Below are positions 3,346 through 52,468 of a stretch of DNA of 64,000 nt, in pieces (the first letter of the stretch is position 1; each line of letters starts with the position of its first letter). The stretch is from Patescibacteria group bacterium. Its GTDB lineage: Bacteria; Patescibacteriota; Patescibacteriia; Buchananbacterales; UBA6539. Under the pieces are notes generated by a model that saw only the letters and a list, made by a program, of their open reading frames with translations, was not told the DNA's origin and did not search any database. A program made the translations under genes and the position numbers. Location: contig JAVEXP010000001.1 in the NCBI GenBank assembly GCA_034003985.1, positions 236,190-300,189 on the forward strand, written 5' to 3'.

Positions 3346-3798
3346 TTAAACTCGGCGTGGTTTCTTTGGACGGCAACCGTTGTGAGGAATCGGTGTAATG
3401 TCCTTAATACTTAAAACATTTATGCCATTGGCGTTGAGGGCGCGGATTGCCGCTTCGCGGCCGCCGCCAACACCTTTAACGAAAACATTAACCTCTTTGA
3501 GACCGTATGGTTTTGCCCGTTCAACAGCATTGGCAACAATAACACCGGCCGCGTAAGGAGTTGATTTTTTAGGACCTTTAAAACCGGCCTGGCCGGCGGA
3601 ACTTTGGGTTAAAGAATTGCCGGCATTATCAGTTAAAGTGATCATGGTATTGTTGTAGGTTGCTTTAACATAAGCCCGACCAGTACTAACTTGGCGTTTG
3701 GTCTTTTTTTTACCTTTAACCTTGGCGGTTGATACGGCCTCGGTTGATTTTTCAACAATTGGCTGCTCCTGATTATCTTGGGGTTTTTGTTCAGTCAT
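3346..3798 (-). CDS. rpsK: 30S ribosomal protein S11 (with N-terminal extension)
   Basis: GVGGGREAAIRALNANGINVLSIKDITPIPHNGCRPKKPRRV C-terminus. Confidence 0.92.
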   Translation of the reverse strand: MTEQKPQDNQEQPIVEKSTEAVSTAKVKGKKKTKRQVSTGRAYVKATYNNTMITLTDNAGNSLTQSSAGQAGFKGPKKSTPYAAGVIVANAVERAKPYGLKEVNVFVKGVGGGREAAIRALNANGINVLSIKDITPIPHNGCRPKKPRRV

Positions 3799-3813
3799 AT
3801 TTAAGAATGTAAG

Positions 3814-4203
3814 TTAGGTCTTTTGAGCCGGCGGTTTTTTGCCTGAACCCATGGTCCGGCGAACATTGCCGCGGACGGTTCGGTTATTGGTTTTGGTTCG
3901 CTGACCGCGCACCGGCAGATGTTTGGAGTGGCGTGAGCCGCGGTAACTGTCGATTTCTTTTAACCGCTTAACATTTAACAAAACTTCGCGTTTTAGTTCA
4001 CCTTCAACCCTGATATTTTTATCGATGAATTCGCGAAGTTGATTAATTTGGGTTTCAGTCAAGTCTTTTATTCTGACATTTGGATCAATTTTGGTTTGTG
4101 TCAAAATTTTATTGGCCGTGGTGCGACCAATACCGTAGATGTAAGTTAGAGCGATTTGCGCTCGTTTGTCTTTAGGCAGGGTAATACCCGCAATTCTAGC
4201 CAT
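3814..4203 (-). CDS. rpsM: 30S ribosomal protein S13
   Basis: [27 protein letters not shown]-terminus. Confidence 0.92.
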
Positions 4204-10604: not shown

Positions 10605-10627
10605 ATAATTTAAGGGTTTAATTTTAA

Positions 10628-10654
10628 TTAGCACTCTAATACATAGAGTGCTAA
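10628..10654 (-). promoter_or_regulatory. CIRCE element (HrcA operator) TTAGCACTC-N9-GAGTGCTAA upstream of clpB
   Basis: Exact match to the CIRCE consensus with a 9-nt spacer (TAATACATA), immediately downstream of a consensus promoter. Confidence 0.85.
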
Positions 10655-10657
10655 TTT

Positions 10658-15284: not shown

Positions 15285-16637
15285 TTAGGAAGTTGGTAAA
15301 TTGGTCGGCGGGGTGGTTTTGGGAGCGTCGCTAGTTGGGTGTTTATGAATTTCCCGTCTTTCAACCGGCAGGCCAATTGGGGCTTCGGCCCGTTTGGCTT
15401 CAGTTTTCTTAACTAGCGGTGCCTTGACTTTCAAAAGCGGGAAATGCCACAGACTAGCCAATTCCTCAGTATTGAGGATAAATCCATATTCACCGGGATT
15501 TAGAGAATGGGCCCGGTCTTTATAGCGGAATAAAATCCGATTTTTTCGCCATTTTAAACGAATTTTGGTAAACCAGACAAGACCACCGGTAAAAAATTTA
15601 GCGTCGGGTTTTAGAGAGTTTAAGCCAAGATCATTGAATTGTTTGAAAGAGCCATACAACCCTTGGGCGGCTTTAACTTTTTTGAAATATGGTTTTTCGG
15701 CGATGTAAATCAATCTCATTCTGACATGGAAACCAATTTTGCTAACCTTGTGTTCAATAGCCGCTACTTCGTCTTTTTTACCTTGAGTCAAGTATAACAT
15801 TTGATTGGGTGGTTCGTCTTTAGACCCTTGGGAACTTTCTTCCGTCGTGTTCATTGCGGCAATTAAGGAATTGGGAATATCATAAATCAAGTCAAAGATA
15901 TTTTTTTTCGGCTTAGTACTGGCACCAATGATTTTATTGATGACTGGTTGAGCCTTTTCGCCCCAGTCGTTATCAGCCGGGGTAATAACATATTGAAGCC
16001 ATAATTCTTCTCCCGGGCCAATGCGGCTCATGGCCTCCAAAATTGAAGCCATGGGATCTTTAATCTCTTGGGAGATTGAGTCTTCAAATTCTTTATAAGT
16101 GATTATAGGGTAAACATCATTTTTGGCTAATTTGATTTCTGCTCCAAGTAAATCATATTTGTCGTTGGGAAATTTCAAATTCCAGTCTTTGGTATAATCT
16201 TCGATTTCGGTAATCTCCGCGTCCGGATATTGGGCGTAGATTATGGCTTCAATTAAATCGCGGTAAGTATCAACCAAGTGAACGATAAATTGGATGTAAC
16301 CGCCAATGCTGACAATCTCAAAGCTGAAACTATTATTAATTTCGCCAAACCACCATTTTTCATAAAAGCCTAAAGGTTGATGGGCACCGGCCAGATGGGC
16401 AAAAATGTTTTCAACCGCTCGAGGTGTTTGTTCGTTGTCTTTGGGGATGTCGATAGCCAACAGAATATAGTTACGCTCTTGGCGGTATCTATTGCGGATG
16501 TAATTTTGCCATACCAAAAGCATTCCATAGACAAACAAAAAGACCGGATAAATCCAGCCGACGGTTTTAGTCAACCACCAGGCGAAAGCGAAGGGGTCGG
16601 ATATTGGAATATTACTTAAATCAATCGTAATTTCCAT
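15285..16637 (-). CDS. Single-pass membrane protein of unknown function (one N-terminal TM helix, ~400-aa soluble domain), co-operonic with the coupling-protein-like ATPase
   Basis: Hydrophobic segment WWLTKTVGWIYPVFLFVYGMLLVW near the N-terminus. No recognisable catalytic motifs. 15-nt gap to the downstream ATPase gene. Confidence 0.5.
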   Translation of the reverse strand: MEITIDLSNIPISDPFAFAWWLTKTVGWIYPVFLFVYGMLLVWQNYIRNRYRQERNYILLAIDIPKDNEQTPRAVENIFAHLAGAHQPLGFYEKWWFGEINNSFSFEIVSIGGYIQFIVHLVDTYRDLIEAIIYAQYPDAEITEIEDYTKDWNLKFPNDKYDLLGAEIKLAKNDVYPIITYKEFEDSISQEIKDPMASILEAMSRIGPGEELWLQYVITPADNDWGEKAQPVINKIIGASTKPKKNIFDLIYDIPNSLIAAMNTTEESSQGSKDEPPNQMLYLTQGKKDEVAAIEHKVSKIGFHVRMRLIYIAEKPYFKKVKAAQGLYGSFKQFNDLGLNSLKPDAKFFTGGLVWFTKIRLKWRKNRILFRYKDRAHSLNPGEYGFILNTEELASLWHFPLLKVKAPLVKKTEAKRAEAPIGLPVERREIHKHPTSDAPKTTPPTNLPTS

Positions 16638-35697: not shown

Positions 35698-36688
35698 GGC
35701 TGGCTAAAACAATCATAAAGACTGCCAAAACCACTAAAGCCAGAACTTTACCCTTGGAATGGAGAAATAGCGATATGGTGCCGGAAACGGCGGTAATAAA
35801 ATAAAGGAAAATGACAGTTTGGCGGTGGGATAGGCCGAGATCTAAAAGCCGGTAGTGAAGATGACGACGGTCACCAATGGCTGGCGATTTTTTAAACCAT
35901 AGGCGTTGAACGATTACCCAGGCGACATCTAGAATTGGGATACCCATAATTAGTAAGGCCGTGGCAATTTTTGACCCTGAAATTATTGAAAGGGTACCTA
36001 ATAAAAAACCACATAAAACACTGCCACCTTCGCCCAAAAAAATTTTAGCCGGATGCCAATTAAAAATTAAAAAACCAAGAGTTGATCCGGCTAAAATTAA
36101 GGCCAAAATGGAGGTGCCTGATAGCGAAACATCCCAGTAAAGACTGACTATAAAAATAATAATTGAACCAATGGCTGTTATTCCAGAAGTAAGAGCGTCA
36201 AGGCCATCAAGGAATTTAGTGGTATAAATCATTCCCATTATCCAAAAAAATGTCGTGACCGTTCCCAAAAATACCGGAAATTCAATGATGCCGCCAAGCG
36301 GATTGGTAACAAAAAGAATTTTAGCCCCCGACAATAGTAAGGTGAGGGTCGCCAAGACGGGAAAAATTAACTGCTGGTGGGGTTTGATGTTGTATTTATC
36401 GTCCAATAATCCGCCGATAATCAAAATTAGTCCGCCGATTAAAATCGCGGTGATGTGATAATTGTTTATTTTACTGTCGTTAAGGTAACCGTTAAACCAA
36501 AATAGACCAGCGGTTAGACTAAAAGCGAGATAAATGGCCACACCGCCTAATAAAGGAGTTGGTCGCTTGTGGATTTTGCGCGGGGCAGGTAGATCAAAAA
36601 TCCCAAGCTTAGTGGCCAATATTTTAACAAGCAAGGTAAGACCAGTCGATAAAATAAAAGCAATACTTAGGGCGAATAAATAGATCAT
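35657..36688 (-). CDS. MraY/WecA-family polyprenyl-phosphate sugar-1-phosphate transferase
   Basis: 343 aa, ~10 TM. IFDLPAPRKIHKRPTPLLGGVAIY and DGLDALTSG motifs of the GT4 MraY/WecA family. Confidence 0.7.
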   Translation of the reverse strand: MIYLFALSIAFILSTGLTLLVKILATKLGIFDLPAPRKIHKRPTPLLGGVAIYLAFSLTAGLFWFNGYLNDSKINNYHITAILIGGLILIIGGLLDDKYNIKPHQQLIFPVLATLTLLLSGAKILFVTNPLGGIIEFPVFLGTVTTFFWIMGMIYTTKFLDGLDALTSGITAIGSIIIFIVSLYWDVSLSGTSILALILAGSTLGFLIFNWHPAKIFLGEGGSVLCGFLLGTLSIISGSKIATALLIMGIPILDVAWVIVQRLWFKKSPAIGDRRHLHYRLLDLGLSHRQTVIFLYFITAVSGTISLFLHSKGKVLALVVLAVFMIVLASLVLSIHHRKHHEI

Positions 36689-36689
36689 T

Positions 36690-39458
36690 TTAGATTTCCT
36701 TAGCTTTAATTACTTTTAGGCTGCCGACGGTTTCAACCAGGACGGTATCTCGCCTTTCAATTTTATTGGCTAGTAAATAGTTGGCCAAAGGATCTTGAAT
36801 TTTTTCTTGAATCAGCCTTCTTAATGGTCTGGCACCAAATTGCGGATCAAATCCTTGGCTGGCCAAGTCCGCCAGCGCTGTGGGCGTAATTTCAAGTTTG
36901 ATGCCTTTAGCCTCAAGATTACGCGCTACTTTATTGATCATTAATTGAGCAATTTTTTGAACATCTTCCAGTGACAATGGTTTAAATACAATTACCCCAT
37001 CAAATCGATTAAGAAATTCCGGCCGGAAATATTGGTTTAACTCACGATCCATTAATTGTTGCTTGGTCTGTTCAACACTAGTACCGTTTCTAATTTGTTC
37101 TTGAATGAAGGTTGATGCAGCGTTGGAAGTGGCGATAATAATGGCATTGGTGAAATCGACAGTCCGGCCGTTGTTGTCGGTTAAACGCCCATCTTCCATG
37201 ATTTGGAGAAATATATTAAGGATATCGGGATGAGCTTTTTCGATTTCATCCAACAAAATCAAAGAAAATGGATTTTTTCTTACCGCTTCAGATAAAAAAC
37301 CACCTTCCTCGCCATAGCCAGGAGGTGCGCCAATTAATCGATTGAGACTAGTTTTATCCTGGTATTCGGACATATCTAGTCTGATCATATTTTCCTGATC
37401 ACCAAAATAAACTTCCGCAACGGTTTTAGCCAACTCGGTCTTACCGACACCAGTTGGTCCAAGAAACAACAGATTAACAATCGGCCGGGAGAGGTCGCGC
37501 ATCTCCGCTCTGGCGCGACGCAAAGAAGAGGCAACCATCTCAACTGCTTCCACTTGGTCGACTACTCGCTGGTGGATCTTTTCTTCCAGATTGAGGAGTT
37601 TCTCCGACTCTTCCTTGGTTATTTCAGTCAACGGTATGTTAGTTTTTTGAGAAATTATCGCGGCAACATCATTTTCGTTAACGACACTATTTTTTCCTTT
37701 CTGATTGCGTACCGTCGTGGCGACCTCTTGAAGAACCTCGATCGCCTTTTCCGGAAGAAATCGGTCGTGTAAATAACGATCGGAAAGTAGAACCGTTTGA
37801 GCCACTGCGTCATAAGAAAAATATACTTGGTTTTGGTATTCAAAAGCCCCAACTTTAGATTCAACAATTTGAATCGCTTCGTTTCCGGAAACTTCCTGAA
37901 TTTCAATTTTTTCTAAAACATCATCAAGAGAACTCCGGCCTTCAACATAACGACGATAGTCACCGGGGGTAGAGGTCGCAATTACCAAAATTGTATTGGC
38001 CGCCAAGGTTTTGGCCAGTACATCCGCCAGATCAATACTACCTGGACGGCCGGAAGTAATGCCAACCATATTGTGAATGTCACCAATGTAAAGAACAATA
38101 TTGCCCGATCTTCTAATTTCGTTTAAAGCAAACATTAGTCGTTCCTGGGCTTCAGCCGGCGTAGCGCCGCTTACCAGTTTGGCGACGCTTAGACTGACTA
38201 GCCGTTTATCCTGAAGAAACTCCGGGACATCTTCTTCAACCATTCTTTGGACAATACCTTCAACAATGGTGTTTTTACCAACGCCAGGATTACCTACCAA
38301 AATGACACTGCGGCGAGTACCACCATGCATAATACTAAGAATATCATCAATCTCCTTTTCCCGACCGATACAAGGCATTAGATAACCGGCCTGAGCCAGT
38401 AAGGTCATATCTTGACTGAAAGCGTCCAAAACCGGCGTGGCAATGGCGGTCATGGAACGATTCATGGTACTACTTGGTTTCAAACTGGCCCGTTGGCGAA
38501 ATTTTTGCCAATTGGCTCGGAGTTGTTTTTTGATTCTTAACCAAGCGATGACATTGCTTATTTTATCTGAATCAATATCTAAATCGTACAGCAGCTCTTT
38601 AACATCATTTTCTTGACTCGCCAAAGCTTCTAGGATTTCAGTGACCTCAACTTTTTTCTGTCGCAATTGATATGACAAAAAATAAGATTCAAAAATGATT
38701 TTTTCGGCCAACTCGCCAAAAATTACCGGCATAGTGCCGCCGGCTGGCTGGCGACCAAGAATACTACGAATTTTATTTTTTAAAGTTGTAAACGGTACTC
38801 CCAAGCGGCTAAATATTATTTGAATTTGCTGATCAATCAGTAGTGATATTAACAGATGAATCGGAAAAACCGCCTGGTCTTTATATTTAGCCGCTAATTC
38901 CCAGGAACGATTGACTATTTGTCTGGCTTCGAAAGTAAAATACTTGGCAATGTCAATTTGTTTGCCGCGTGGCAACCGTTTGGCCTGCTCCCAGCTTAGC
39001 TGATCAAAAGCGGTTGGTTTTAATTCGTACGATTTTTTTGGAATATGTCTGATTTTTTCGATATCTCTTTGAAAACGGTAATAAAGGTAGGTATCGGTTA
39101 ATAATGAAAACCAAAAAATAACCAATTGCCAGCTGTGATATCGGTAGAATACCGATATGGGTAAATGGTTAGTGGTATAGATAACCAATTGCCAAACCAA
39201 CATTACCAACCCCAGCGCGCCGAATAAAAACAAAGTTATATTTATTAAGTTTTTTATAAAAAGCACTAATTTATGACGAGCAATGGTTGTAGCGCTGATT
39301 GGCTCACCCCAATAGAGCAATTCTTGTCCGGTCCAGGCCCTTAGAAAAAATCCGTCGCATTGTTCACATTTTTTATCATTAATAATCCCCTGCCCCTGAC
39401 AATCGGGACAAGTTAAAAATTGAAGCCGGGGATGATGATTTTTCGATTCTTGATTCAT
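36690..39458 (-). CDS. Membrane-anchored ClpC/ClpB-like AAA+ protein with an N-terminal DnaJ-type zinc finger, TM helices, Clp-N repeats, a degenerate first ATPase domain and a canonical second ATPase domain
   Basis: N-terminal CPDCQGQGI...CEQCDG. Two hydrophobic segments (aa ~65-120). D1 Walker A GNPGVGKNT and Walker B LYIGDIH (non-canonical). D2 [13 protein letters not shown] and LILLDEIEKAH (canonical). Confidence 0.75.
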   Translation of the reverse strand: MNQESKNHHPRLQFLTCPDCQGQGIINDKKCEQCDGFFLRAWTGQELLYWGEPISATTIARHKLVLFIKNLINITLFLFGALGLVMLVWQLVIYTTNHLPISVFYRYHSWQLVIFWFSLLTDTYLYYRFQRDIEKIRHIPKKSYELKPTAFDQLSWEQAKRLPRGKQIDIAKYFTFEARQIVNRSWELAAKYKDQAVFPIHLLISLLIDQQIQIIFSRLGVPFTTLKNKIRSILGRQPAGGTMPVIFGELAEKIIFESYFLSYQLRQKKVEVTEILEALASQENDVKELLYDLDIDSDKISNVIAWLRIKKQLRANWQKFRQRASLKPSSTMNRSMTAIATPVLDAFSQDMTLLAQAGYLMPCIGREKEIDDILSIMHGGTRRSVILVGNPGVGKNTIVEGIVQRMVEEDVPEFLQDKRLVSLSVAKLVSGATPAEAQERLMFALNEIRRSGNIVLYIGDIHNMVGITSGRPGSIDLADVLAKTLAANTILVIATSTPGDYRRYVEGRSSLDDVLEKIEIQEVSGNEAIQIVESKVGAFEYQNQVYFSYDAVAQTVLLSDRYLHDRFLPEKAIEVLQEVATTVRNQKGKNSVVNENDVAAIISQKTNIPLTEITKEESEKLLNLEEKIHQRVVDQVEAVEMVASSLRRARAEMRDLSRPIVNLLFLGPTGVGKTELAKTVAEVYFGDQENMIRLDMSEYQDKTSLNRLIGAPPGYGEEGGFLSEAVRKNPFSLILLDEIEKAHPDILNIFLQIMEDGRLTDNNGRTVDFTNAIIIATSNAASTFIQEQIRNGTSVEQTKQQLMDRELNQYFRPEFLNRFDGVIVFKPLSLEDVQKIAQLMINKVARNLEAKGIKLEITPTALADLASQGFDPQFGARPLRRLIQEKIQDPLANYLLANKIERRDTVLVETVGSLKVIKAKEI

Positions 39459-39460
39459 AG

Positions 39461-39838
39461 TCAGCTAATTACCCAACTAAAATTAGCCCAAATTTGATTG
39501 ACGATTAAAATCGGCAGCCCAAGGTAAAATAATAATCCCAGAAAAACAACAATAACCCAAATCGCCAAAATAATTGATCTGACAATTATTTGAACCAATC
39601 GAGCAAAAAAACTTATCAATCTTCCTTCAATATCGTATTGACCAAACATGGGGGTAAAAATATTTTTTATCCAAACGGCAATCCCAAGTCTTTGGCTTTG
39701 ATTTTTGATGGAAAACAAGCAGCCTCTTAAAGTTTTTAATAGCCCTTTAGAATACCACCAAACAGGCCAATATAAAAAATCACCAATCAAGTCCACAATA
39801 ACGAATTTAGCCGGAGAATAAACAATATTTTTTTTCAT
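39461..39838 (-). CDS. Small hypothetical membrane protein, first gene of the ClpC-like operon
   Basis: 125 aa, two hydrophobic helices; stop is 2 nt before the ClpC-like start. Confidence 0.45.
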   Translation of the reverse strand: MKKNIVYSPAKFVIVDLIGDFLYWPVWWYSKGLLKTLRGCLFSIKNQSQRLGIAVWIKNIFTPMFGQYDIEGRLISFFARLVQIIVRSIILAIWVIVVFLGLLFYLGLPILIVNQIWANFSWVIS

Positions 39839-39905
39839 ATTTTATATATTATACCACAAAAGCTCCAAATAAAAAAAGCCGATCCCTCCCGAAGAAAGAT
39901 CGGAC

Positions 39906-40031
39906 CTAGCCGCGCTCAAGTTTGCGCAAGATCTTGCGCAGGAGTCGCAGGATAGGATTTTTGGTGTGCCGGCTGATGCGACGGTACAGATACCGCCGGT
40001 GATTATGATGATGGTGCTGCTGTTGACTCAT
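39906..40031 (-). CDS. Possible 41-aa His/Arg-rich peptide (MSQQQHHHHNHRRYLYRRISRHTKNPILRLLRKILRKLERG)
   Basis: ATG preceded by AAAGGGGGA RBS (minus strand). High-GC island; divergent from the 40308 peptide gene. Manual read; below the ORF-track cutoff. Confidence 0.3.
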   Translation of the reverse strand: MSQQQHHHHNHRRYLYRRISRHTKNPILRLLRKILRKLERG

Positions 40032-40190
40032 TTGTCCCCCTTTCTGCCGAATCGGCTTCAAGGTTTTGGTTGTGGGTAATGGGGGTCAAATTTTTATCTG
40101 GTTTAAGGATCTCTCTAATTTAAAAAAATGTCAAGTCCGATATCGTAGTTTTAGAAGTGATAAAAAAATATTTATTATATCATTTTGATC

Positions 40191-40224
40191 AAACCTGTCA
40201 AGTATCCATACTCTTGACAGGTTT
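40191..40224. promoter_or_regulatory. Perfect 12-bp inverted repeat AAACCTGTCAAG-N10-CTTGACAGGTTT overlapping the -35 of the 40308 gene promoter; candidate operator
   Basis: The right half-site contains TTGACA (40214-40219); TAAAAT -10 at 40236-40241 (16-nt spacer); ~65 nt upstream of a strong-RBS small ORF. Confidence 0.5.
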
Positions 40225-40307
40225 GCGACGATTATTAAAATGCCCTCATTATTTGGTTACTGAGACCAAATAAAAACAGGGAATAAGAACGAGGAGGAAA
40301 ATCCAAG

Positions 40308-40490
40308 ATGAAGATTAGTGAGAGAGTAATTTGGTTGCTGATCCTGGGGTTGTTTTGTCTGGCGGGTCCAGCGCTGGCAAATCAAGCAGCTGGAGAGGCC
40401 GGTTTCAGTCTGGCTTACTGCGTCATTGTGGCATCTACCTTATTTACTCCGATTGGCCTAAATTATTTGCTTAGTAAGTATAATAACTAA
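40308..40490 (+). CDS. 60-aa signal-peptide-bearing hydrophobic peptide (bacteriocin-like or small secreted/membrane peptide)
   Basis: Strong RBS GAGGAGG 8 nt before ATG; own promoter with palindromic operator. N-terminal MKISERVIWLLILGLFCLAGPALA then 36 aa NQAAGEAGFSLAYCVIVASTLFTPIGLNYLLSKYNN. Rho-independent terminator follows. Confidence 0.6.
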   Translation: MKISERVIWLLILGLFCLAGPALANQAAGEAGFSLAYCVIVASTLFTPIGLNYLLSKYNN

Positions 40491-40520
40491 GCAAAATAGA
40501 GGCCGATGAATGTGGATCAG

Positions 40521-40550
40521 CAACCCGGTGTGCCGTCGGGTTGTTTTTTA
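40521..40550 (+). terminator. Rho-independent terminator CAACCCGG-tgtgcc-GTCGGGTTG + T6
   Basis: Perfect GC-rich stem followed by TTTTTT, 30 nt after the 40308..40490 stop. Confidence 0.7.
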
Positions 40551-40620
40551 ATTGAGATAAATTATATTTACTAGTTGTTACAAATTTATAATATTTTTAG
40601 CATTGATTGATATTTTTTTA

Positions 40621-41523
40621 TTACCAACAAATTCTGACTTCTTCTTTAATTATTTCTTTTAAATATTCTTTTGTTTCGGCAAGATCGCCAATTTTATCAA
40701 TTAGACCTTTTTCCAATGCCATTTGCCCAAGCATACTGGAACCGTCCGCCAACTTTTTGACCTTTTCAATATCCAATTTTCTGTTTTCAGAAACAGTCTT
40801 AATAAAGTTGTTATATATTATTTCGGTATCTCTAGCCAGAAGCTCTTTTTCTTCGTTGGACAAAGACTTGTTGGGGTTGCCAGTATCTTTAAATTTTCCA
40901 AAGCTAATTTGGTTGTAAGTTAACCCTTCGCTTTGATTTTGGCGGACATTATCTACATACGACATCGTCACTCCAATGCCACCAATGTCAGAATTTTCAG
41001 AGGCAAAAATAATGTCAGCACCGGTAGCCGCCCAGTAGGCGGCGGATACCCCACTTTCTCTGATTAAAACAACGGTTGGCTTTTTAGCTTTTTTTAAAGC
41101 TTCAGCTACTTCCTCAGCGGCTACCGGGTAGCCGCCGTAAGAATCGATTTCAATCAAAATGGCCTTGATATTGTCGTCTTTATCCGCATCGGTAATCCAG
41201 TAGACGATATTTTCCGATGCGGTTTGGTCTTCGAGCGGGCTTCCGTCTTCGTCAAAGTTGTAAGGGGGTATATAAGTTATCAGCTCACCGCGAAGTTCGA
41301 TGCCATAGACATTGCAACTTTCTTCTTCGATATACTCATTAGCCTGATATTCGTTAATTTTTTCCTCATTAAATGAATGGTTTCCAAACTGCCAGGCAAA
41401 TTCATTTTTGATTGTTATAAAAGATGCTGTGATAATCAAAAAAATTGTGATTATTTTTAAAATTTTTAAATCATGATTGCCGTCCCATAGCTTGAAACTA
41501 ATATTTTTTTTGTTTTCAATCAT
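40621..41523 (-). CDS. sppA: Signal peptide peptidase SppA (S49 family, 36K type)
   Basis: N-terminal TM; IDSYGGYPVAAEEV and GVSAAYWAATGADIIFA S49 motifs; 300 aa. Confidence 0.8.
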   Translation of the reverse strand: MIENKKNISFKLWDGNHDLKILKIITIFLIITASFITIKNEFAWQFGNHSFNEEKINEYQANEYIEEESCNVYGIELRGELITYIPPYNFDEDGSPLEDQTASENIVYWITDADKDDNIKAILIEIDSYGGYPVAAEEVAEALKKAKKPTVVLIRESGVSAAYWAATGADIIFASENSDIGGIGVTMSYVDNVRQNQSEGLTYNQISFGKFKDTGNPNKSLSNEEKELLARDTEIIYNNFIKTVSENRKLDIEKVKKLADGSSMLGQMALEKGLIDKIGDLAETKEYLKEIIKEEVRICW

Positions 41524-52008: not shown

Positions 52009-52037
52009 TTGACAAAAAGATAATCTTATGCTATGAT
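52009..52037 (+). promoter_or_regulatory. Consensus-like promoter TTGACA-17-TATGAT for RNase P RNA
   Basis: ttgacaaaaagataatcttatgctatgat, ending ~6 nt before the P1 5' strand. Confidence 0.6.
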
Positions 52038-52041
52038 CTTT

Positions 52042-52425
52042 CAGTCTGAGTAAACCAGATGGTCGCTCGTTTAGAAATAAGCGAGAGGAAAGTCCGAACA
52101 CCACAAAAAATGGCAGCTCCTAACGGGAGCCGAGTATAAATAAGAGAGTAAAAGTTCTTAAGCCTTTTATTCTGTTATCAAGCTTAGGGCAAGTGCAACA
52201 GAAAATACACCGCCTAAGTCCGCTTGACGGAACGGTAAGGTTGAAATCGTGAGGTAAGAGCTCACGGCCGACAGACTGGCAACAGTCGGGTTGGTAAACT
52301 CCTGCCTGGTGCAATGCCAAATTCGGTAGGCAGCTTGATCCCGATGGCAACATCGGGACTAGATAGATGACCATCATCCCAATCCAAAGGGATACAAAAT
52401 TCGGCTTATCGGTTTGCTCAGACAA
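52042..52425 (+). ncRNA. rnpB: RNase P RNA (bacterial type)
   Basis: P1 pairing GTCTGAGTAAACC (52044-56) with GGTTTGCTCAGAC (52411-23). Conserved AGGAAAGTCCGAAC, CAGAAAATACACCGCC, GGTTGAAATCGTGAGGTAAGAGCTCAC, ACAAAATTCGGCTTA and GGTAAACTCC blocks. Confidence 0.85.
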
Positions 52426-52429
52426 TAAA

Positions 52430-52457
52430 AAACACCTCCCTTAAGAGGTGTTTTTTA
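52430..52457. terminator. Bidirectional terminator: long palindrome GACAATAAAAAACACCTC-cctta-GAGGTGTTTTTTATTGTC
   Basis: Perfect extended inverted repeat with T6 on the plus strand and a T-rich tract on the minus strand. Sits between rnpB and the convergent minus-strand MFS-like gene. Confidence 0.7.
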
Positions 52458-52468
52458 TTGTCTGAAAA

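Follow-up and report, generated by a model that had tools for sequence, protein, structure and literature searches.

Between the gene for a 125-aa membrane protein and that for the signal-peptide peptidase SppA, a 64-kb stretch of a Patescibacteria (candidate phyla radiation, CPR) genome harbours what may be a lineage-specific cassette of two small, divergent transcription units: a gene for a 60-residue membrane peptide on the plus strand and a small RNA (sRNA) on the minus strand, both departing from one symmetric bidirectional promoter and co-regulated via its palindrome. Taken as a whole, we consider this arrangement to have about an even chance of being correct. The stretch, hereafter the window, belongs to a contig of 331,630 bp, and the closest catalogued relatives of the genome are metagenome-assembled genomes (MAGs) of Candidatus Buchananbacteria, in which the neighbouring 125-aa protein displays 54–63 % identity. 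The locus itself is a gap of 782 bp, extending from the start of the 125-aa membrane-protein gene (39838→39461) to the 3′ end of sppA (41523→40621), the product of which is an S49 signal-peptide peptidase.

In the proposed cassette, the plus-strand unit would be the mRNA for a 60-residue peptide whose Sec-type N-terminus directs it into the membrane or across it, with its end state being either a cleaved, single-pass peptide of 36 residues or an uncleaved two-helix hairpin. The minus-strand unit would work as an sRNA, and the 41-codon His/Arg-rich open reading frame (ORF) within it would be a side effect of GC-rich, palindrome-rich sequence. A dimeric regulator bound to the palindrome would occlude both −35 boxes, and would in this way switch both units together. 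Such an orphan divergent pair belongs to known kinds, namely a small membrane-peptide gene and a small RNA under a palindromic bidirectional promoter. An earlier description of the locus, made from the letters alone (the sequence-only reading), had presented it as a GC-rich island with a palindromic operator and a possibly horizontally acquired, bacteriocin-like peptide gene. Its observation is largely real and is in part confirmed here: the sequence features that it listed are present, its GC island and its ranking of the ribosome-binding site were overstated, and the locus is more symmetric than it had recognized.

Palindrome, promoters and probable peptide gene

At the centre of the locus resides a perfect inverted repeat, CAAACCTGTCAAG-N10-CTTGACAGGTTTG (40190–40202 and 40213–40225, no strand), which is 100 % identical over 13 nt per arm, one base more in each arm than the 12 bp originally reported, and which constitutes a candidate shared operator. 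It is unique in the window and absent from the loci of the relatives. Each arm is composed of a TTGACA −35 hexamer and 7 more symmetric bases. On the plus strand, the previously described promoter of the peptide unit, TTGACA-16-TAAAAT (40214–40241), indeed overlaps the palindrome, matches the consensus at 11 of 12 positions and places a putative transcription start near 40248. On the minus strand lies a divergent promoter, TTGACA-16-TGaTATAAT, with a TG-extended −10 (40201→40174) and a putative start near 40167–40169; it was overlooked in the sequence-only reading, and, with 12 of 12 positions, it scores above its plus-strand counterpart. Since the other arm of the palindrome serves as the −35 box of this minus-strand promoter, the repeat forms the core of a bidirectional promoter, with the −35 hexamers of the two back-to-back promoters 12 bp apart and their deduced start sites separated by ~81 bp. 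An intrinsic terminator is found ~300 nt downstream of each. Promoters of at least 11/12 are scarce, with only nine in the 64 kb (128 kb counting both strands), and the other promoters of this quality in the window precede real genes, including infA, a clpB-like gene and the RNase P RNA.

The symmetry of the repeat is unlikely to have arisen by chance and is not needed by the promoters. It extends 7 bp beyond each hexamer and is sharply bounded, as read from the sequence, with 13 of 13 positions symmetric within the arms vs 2 of 10 in the next ten bases to each side. The window's other six near-consensus promoters lack the GGTTTG extension. Perfect inverted repeats of this class, with arms of at least 11 nt and loops of up to 40 nt, occur 13 times in the window vs ~0.7 times in shuffles, an ~18-fold excess. 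The remaining members of the class are mostly terminators, and the sole non-terminator besides 40190–40225 is a CIRCE (controlling inverted repeat of chaperone expression) element. The repeat therefore displays a dyad symmetry that overlaps promoters and exceeds their needs, as looked for in an operator, and to regard it as one, at least as a candidate site, is a fair inference; to this extent the repressor site proposed by the sequence-only reading stands. A CtsR, LexA or dif-like identity of the palindrome was rejected on inspection against their consensus motifs.

A well-known system of comparable layout is that of bioA and bioBFCD in E. coli, the divergent promoters of which lie under one symmetric BirA operator. 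As there, the recognition elements of two divergent promoters are contained within one palindrome, and one bound dimer could shut both. Unlike there, the 13-bp half-sites are 10 bp apart, the promoters are arranged back-to-back, no regulator is identified, and the products are two small units of ~300 nt rather than biosynthetic operons. The symmetric bidirectional promoter represents a clean, compact candidate for a single-operator, two-gene switch.

The predicted plus-strand transcript of ~304 nt contains, in order, a 5′ hairpin, a Shine–Dalgarno (SD) sequence, a 60-codon ORF and a terminator. The hairpin (40248–40273, 10 bp) occupies the extreme 5′ end of the transcript and appears in every fold. 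The SD, GAGGAGG (40291–40297), is located 10 nt upstream of the ATG, within the spacing of 6–10 nt observed for the window's few SD-bearing genes. Whilst the claim that this is the strongest ribosome-binding site of the window does not hold, given that GAGGAGG occurs seven times, it is nonetheless among very few true SDs, as only ~7 of the 45 long ORFs have anything resembling an SD at 22 nt or less from the start, and the other ~38 have none. The ORF (40308–40490) is as formerly described, and, because 43 of the 45 long ORFs of the window reside on the minus strand, it is among very few plus-strand genes. Dinucleotide shuffling of the transcript yields an ATG ORF of 60 codons in 2.5 % of cases (P = 0.025), both the JGI and the Logan pipeline list the ORF as a gene, and its codon-usage score is 0.09 per codon vs 0.13 for the real 125-aa membrane neighbour.

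The encoded peptide (grand average of hydropathy, GRAVY, 0.92) possesses two hydrophobic segments, the first helix or Sec-like signal spanning residues 1–24 and the second helix residues ~31–58. Read by rule, its N-terminus consists of an n-region, MKISER (with K2 and R6), an h-region of 14–15 hydrophobic residues and a c-region, GPALA, which is followed by NQ; alanine is found at both −3 and −1 (A-x-A), and cleavage is putatively placed between GPALA and NQ. The signal peptide noticed earlier is accordingly upheld, in the form of a Sec-type n-h-c architecture. The predicted mature form, NQAAGEAGFSLAYCVIVASTLFTPIGLNYLLSKYNN, is a 36-mer with one basic residue (K+R) and one acidic residue (D+E), a net charge of 0, a GRAVY of +0.5 and a hydrophobic helix of 23 residues. 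An AlphaFold model from the single sequence displays two helices joined at residues 25–30, with a predicted local distance difference test score (pLDDT) of 71. Downstream of the ORF, the rho-independent terminator that had been reported is found at 40519–40551, its stem (40519–40545) comprising 12 pairs with a 3-nt loop, followed by T6, and it faces the 3′ end of sppA in convergent orientation. The 60-aa ORF is probably a real gene for a small membrane or exported peptide, and a regulated peptide of this kind is the reasonable part of the regulated small secreted peptide that was originally put forward.

The minus-strand unit and its counterparts in relatives

The predicted minus-strand transcript (39872–40168, ~297 nt) is AU-rich in its 5′ third and GC-rich and structured in its 3′ two-thirds, and terminates at an intrinsic terminator (39872–39903), with a stem at 39903–39879 and T7. 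A GC content of ~0.52 is attained only at 39880–40090, compared with 0.40 for the window and a gene mean of 0.41, and the peptide unit stands at 0.44. The elevated segment of ~700 bp in the sequence-only reading hence shrinks to ~210 bp, which is no higher in GC than parts of the clpC-like gene, where windows reach 0.515. Within the transcript lies the His/Arg-rich ORF of 41 aa, MSQQQHHHHNHRRYLYRRISRHTKNPILRLLRKILRKLERG (40031→39906, minus strand; 51 aa if begun from a TTG at 40061), which is doubtful as a coding sequence. It encloses an 18-bp perfect palindrome, TGCGCAAGATCTTGCGCA (39923–39940, no strand), which is unique in the window (0.01 expected) and encodes the LRKILRK repeat of the ORF. 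Upstream, at 40031–40090, a helix of UUUGACCCCC (40090–40081) with GGGGGACAAA (40040–40031) is present in both the minimum free energy (MFE) and centroid folds, and is predicted to sequester an SD-like, G-rich stretch together with the A of the AUG.

The minus unit is more likely to be an sRNA than the source of a 41-aa peptide, and the His/Arg micro-ORF is probably no gene. Whilst the divergent ORF with a G-rich run pointed out in the sequence-only reading does exist, it is probably a by-product of composition, since an ATG ORF of 41 codons arises in 13–20 % of shuffles (P = 0.13–0.20) and its GC content at third codon positions is 0.65, vs 0.40 for the genome. In codon score it ranks at the 0.5th percentile of real genes, its G-run lies 4 nt from the ATG vs 6–10 nt at the other SD genes, and its His run amounts to a trinucleotide repeat, (CAT)3. 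No homologue and no gene call by any pipeline were obtained for it, with matches in the PDB rejected as they are to the His-tags of expression constructs only. GC-rich intergenic RNA in AT-rich genomes, it should be cautioned, easily mimics an Arg/His-rich micro-ORF.

With regard to known RNA families, a search of Rfam with 39000–41500 on both strands, carried to E 10, yields a best hit of E = 0.35, well below the gathering score, and at gathering threshold the whole window returns only RNase P RNA and tRNAs. Candidate identities as transfer-messenger RNA (tmRNA), signal recognition particle (SRP) RNA, 6S RNA or a riboswitch were rejected, there being no Rfam match and an empty ARAGORN result at the locus.

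A synteny search via the 125-aa neighbour provides 22 loci for comparison. The island is found in none of them, the space upstream of the 125-aa gene being hypervariable, and on this comparison it is private to the present lineage. The only segment of it common to relatives is its boundary, the extended −10 TGTGGTATAAT of the operon encoding the 125-aa and ClpC-like proteins (39848–39858, minus strand). This element (TGTGGTATAAT or TATGGTATAAT) is kept in L003, L004, L005, L009, L011, L013, L015 and L016; as it is situated only 7–12 nt before the ATG, a leaderless mRNA is implied for the operon. At the same position and on the same strand, several of the nearest relatives carry a near-consensus promoter, an ORF-less, GC-rich RNA of 225–275 nt with a fold z of ~−4, and a terminator (5683–5968 in L005, equivalent to L014; 3457–3692 in L013; 5712–5935 in L002, equivalent to L010; and a truncated example at 1–100 in L011), and these ORF-less promoter–terminator RNAs are counted in favour of the minus unit as an RNA. 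In other relatives, the preceding gene directly adjoins the 125-aa operon. The relatives' RNAs have no match in Rfam and are not alignable beyond the promoter, with L005 and L013 sharing a promoter/start block of 34 nt (79 % identity) and little else. MAFFT, blastn and RNAalifold likewise produce no credible alignment of the minus unit to them, or even amongst the relatives themselves. They may represent a fast-evolving, unannotated family of sRNAs or leaders.

That the minus unit is instead translated is unlikely. Its product would be either a highly basic 41-aa His/Arg peptide or a leader peptide with ribosome-mediated attenuation, of the pyrBI or his type, of the 125-aa/ClpC-like operon. 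In favour of translation, the ATG ORF harbours HHHHNH at codons 6–11 as well as nine arginines, and the SD-like G-run with its anti-SD helix is a possible translation gate. Folding of the minus transcript is only mildly better than that of shuffles, and on the transcribed strand only (z of −1.35 and −1.79 vs −0.23 for the other strand); given this mild excess and the stable helix that sequesters the SD and start, there is room for translation of the ORF. The length of the ORF is, however, that expected by chance in GC-rich sequence, its codons are atypical and its SD spacing short, and where a GC-rich island lies in an AT-rich genome, the AT-rich tail of a terminator is a natural place for an ORF to end.

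In the attenuator variant, a ribosome at the stop codon would block the terminator hairpin, so that the strong promoter reads into the operon. The locus does contain a short candidate leader ORF with a run of His codons and then an intrinsic terminator, the stem of which begins 3 nt past the stop codon, and an operon in the same orientation starts 36 nt past the U-tract. Moreover, in relatives too this operon is immediately preceded by a promoter, a structured RNA and a terminator, and L013 contains, between its upstream RNA and the 125-aa gene, a basic ORF of 66 aa (3744–3944) with a strong SD (AAGGAGG) and no Pfam match, the final codons of which fall inside the 5′ arm of its terminator. By inspection, AUCCUAUCC (39959–39951) could form 8 of 9 pairs with GGGAGGGAU, the 3′ arm of the terminator, a pairing that is absent from the MFE and centroid folds. 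Speaking against attenuation, a leaderless promoter of the operon's own, with a conserved extended −10, is retained throughout the relatives, and the downstream products, a membrane protein and a ClpC-like ATPase, are unlinked to His or Arg.

What the 60-residue peptide may be

Returning to the cassette and its plus-strand product, database comparisons return the peptide itself and little more. A word-indexed search of 5.8 billion clustered proteins gives a self-match only, and an exhaustive HMMER scan of 1.84 billion representatives adds to this one spurious repeat protein of 5162 aa, dismissed as an artefact, in that its score sums ~15 identical weak matches of 26 residues. No match is found in Pfam, NCBIfam, PHROGs, PADLOC or the PDB, and nothing similar is present in viral contigs. 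One other contig, L001, carries the peptide; as it is 100 % identical over 12.9 kb, it derives from the same genome and is uninformative as an independent strain.

The most likely class for the peptide is that of small membrane-protein modulators, rather than toxins or bacteriocins. Small membrane proteins of fewer than 70 aa, such as AcrZ, KdpF, MgtS and CydX, modulate larger membrane complexes. The peptide resembles them in size, in its one or two hydrophobic helices, in the positive residues at their cytoplasmic ends, and in being a stand-alone short transcription unit that is poorly conserved and, as is often the case for the class, apt to go unannotated. It differs in having no sequence relation to them, in that its neighbours indicate no partner complex, and in an N-terminus that looks like a cleavable Sec signal, a feature missing from most of the class. 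If made, it would be a further case, in a Patescibacteria genome, of a small membrane or secreted protein that is restricted to its lineage and escapes annotation. Surface and secreted molecules of these organisms are thought to mediate their dependence on host cells, and homology-based prediction of function fails for them.

The fold of the plus transcript bears on a second possibility. The naked mRNA is unusually structured (z of −4.2) and contains a predicted, perfect 12-nt long-distance pairing between codons 9–13 (40333–40344, pair probability 0.95–1.0) and 40514–40525, the latter overlapping 7 nt of the 5′ arm of the terminator. In equilibrium folds of the naked RNA this helix prevails over the terminator hairpin (P of 0.97 vs 0.03), and when it forms the SD is largely unpaired. 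Perfect long-range repeats of 12 nt number eight in the window vs 1.5 in shuffles; at eight per 64 kb, finding one in the peptide unit is only mildly surprising. The helix could be a translation-dependent terminator, a lock of the kind seen in type I toxins or a stabilizing closure. In the first case, the terminator would be conditional, acting only if ribosomes translate the ORF, and untranslated transcripts would run antisense into sppA, tying the translation or export of a nascent chain with a signal peptide to the expression of SppA. This folding-based scheme is highly improbable; were it true, it would constitute a secretion-monitor-like circuit acting via antisense transcription.

The second of these options leads to a type I toxin–antitoxin system, in which the 60-aa peptide would be a membrane toxin, its mRNA would be inert by 5′–3′ pairing, and the antitoxin would be the minus unit or the 3′ untranslated region (UTR) of sppA. 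This we judge to be distinctly improbable. Like hok, aapA1 and tisB, the plus unit combines a small hydrophobic ORF, of a size and hydrophobicity suited to such toxins, with a highly structured mRNA and a perfect long-distance helix (P > 0.95) involving the 3′ end. Its transcript opens with a 5′-terminal hairpin, a strongly promoted RNA of ~300 nt adjoins it, and the sppA 3′ UTR must overlap the 3′ end of the peptide mRNA, given a sole minus-strand terminator-like site at 40521–40502. Unlike in those systems, no complementary antitoxin RNA is found: complementarity between the two units amounts at best to a perfect stretch of 9 nt or to 75 % over 20 nt, the full duplex energy of the two is weaker than that of 96 % of shuffles, and no antisense promoter is detected within or after the 60-aa ORF. 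This lack of antisense pairing and of an antisense promoter weakens the toxin–antitoxin interpretation, and the overlap with the sppA 3′ UTR, whilst possible, is not specific. Furthermore, the helix covers codons 9–13 rather than the SD, the cleavable-looking Sec signal is atypical of type I toxins, and no toxin family is matched.

Just as doubtful is a locus with no dedicated function at all, in which neither ORF is real and the hairpins, terminators and promoters either arose incidentally or belong to the neighbours, terminating sppA and insulating the ClpC-like operon. Conservation nowhere, a hypervariable space upstream of the 125-aa gene and ambiguous codon scores are consistent with it. 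Opposing it is a set of features that would hardly coincide in the absence of selection, namely two promoters of at least 11/12 set symmetrically in a perfect 13-bp repeat, a matching distance of ~300 nt to a terminator on each side, a full, correctly spaced SD where SDs are otherwise rare in the genome, and a textbook signal sequence.

Several results also weigh against the cassette proper. Every search returned the same genome only, such that comparative support is nil. Set against 60-codon chunks of real genes, the codon score of the 60-aa ORF falls at the 5.6th percentile; 12 % of spurious ORFs do as well, and the sources listed for the peptide are jgi and lgn only, with the NCBI annotation apparently being without it. 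Concerning the palindrome, there is no second copy in the 64-kb window at one mismatch or fewer, no regulator gene is evident amongst the genes of the window, and the half-sites lie 23 bp apart from centre to centre, an uncommon distance for a simple dimer. Lastly, the minus transcript is weakly structured when set beside the RNAs of the relatives, with their z of ~−4.

Very improbable is the idea first put forward for the locus, of horizontal acquisition combined with a role as a Sec-dependent, class-II-bacteriocin-like toxin or as a pheromone under a dedicated repressor. A Sec-like signal with A-L-A at −3 to −1, strong expression signals, a palindrome overlapping the promoter and an orphan distribution would suit it, and Sec-dependent class II bacteriocins such as enterocin P are likewise short precursors that bear a signal peptide of the Sec type; yet the mature part of the latter is cationic and amphiphilic, and the 36-mer is neutral, hydrophobic enough to stay in the membrane, and matches no motif or profile in Pfam, NCBIfam or PHROGs. 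Of the defining features of such bacteriocins, only the leader (double-glycine or Sec signal) is represented, by the rule-read Sec-like N-terminus, and no immunity, ATP-binding cassette (ABC) export, modification or two-component genes are adjacent or in the gene list of the window. A textbook signal peptide, in other words, does not make a bacteriocin. Horizontal acquisition fares no better: blastn finds no similar DNA in phage or plasmid records, which led to a mobile-element origin being rejected, neither DNA nor protein of this kind is found in viral contigs, genomes or metagenomes, and the GC content of the peptide unit is ordinary. The absence of homologues, which the sequence-only reading had itself listed, together with a lack of signs of expression, as grounds for abandoning its proposal, extends to all databases searched.

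Neighbouring operon and other elements of the window

The 125-aa membrane-protein gene is translationally coupled to that of a 922-aa ClpC-like AAA+ protein (36690–39458, minus strand), the start of which overlaps the stop of the 125-aa gene, an arrangement that is kept in L002, L005 and L013. The N-terminal part of the ClpC-like protein bears a zinc-ribbon motif (CxxCxGxG), after which transmembrane helices are predicted; in view of these features and of the conserved arrangement, it looks like a membrane-anchored Clp ATPase. On the other flank of the locus, a synteny search via SppA shows that its closest relatives have 65 % identity or less and reside in unrelated contexts.

Elsewhere in the window, the CIRCE-type inverted repeat, TTAGCACTC-N9-GAGTGCTAA (10626–10656), is positioned between a 12/12 promoter (10685→10658, minus strand) and the ClpB-like gene, which suggests that heat-shock genes of this Patescibacteria genome are under control of the HrcA type. 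The RNase P RNA (52047–52424, 230 bits) is preceded by an 11/12 promoter (52009–52037) and followed by a perfect inverted repeat of 21 bp (52418–52465), which is probably its terminator. Further perfect repeats include one at 36041–36098, with inverted arms of 14 bp around a 30-nt loop, and a long-range inverted repeat of 12–14 nt around 15992–16254.

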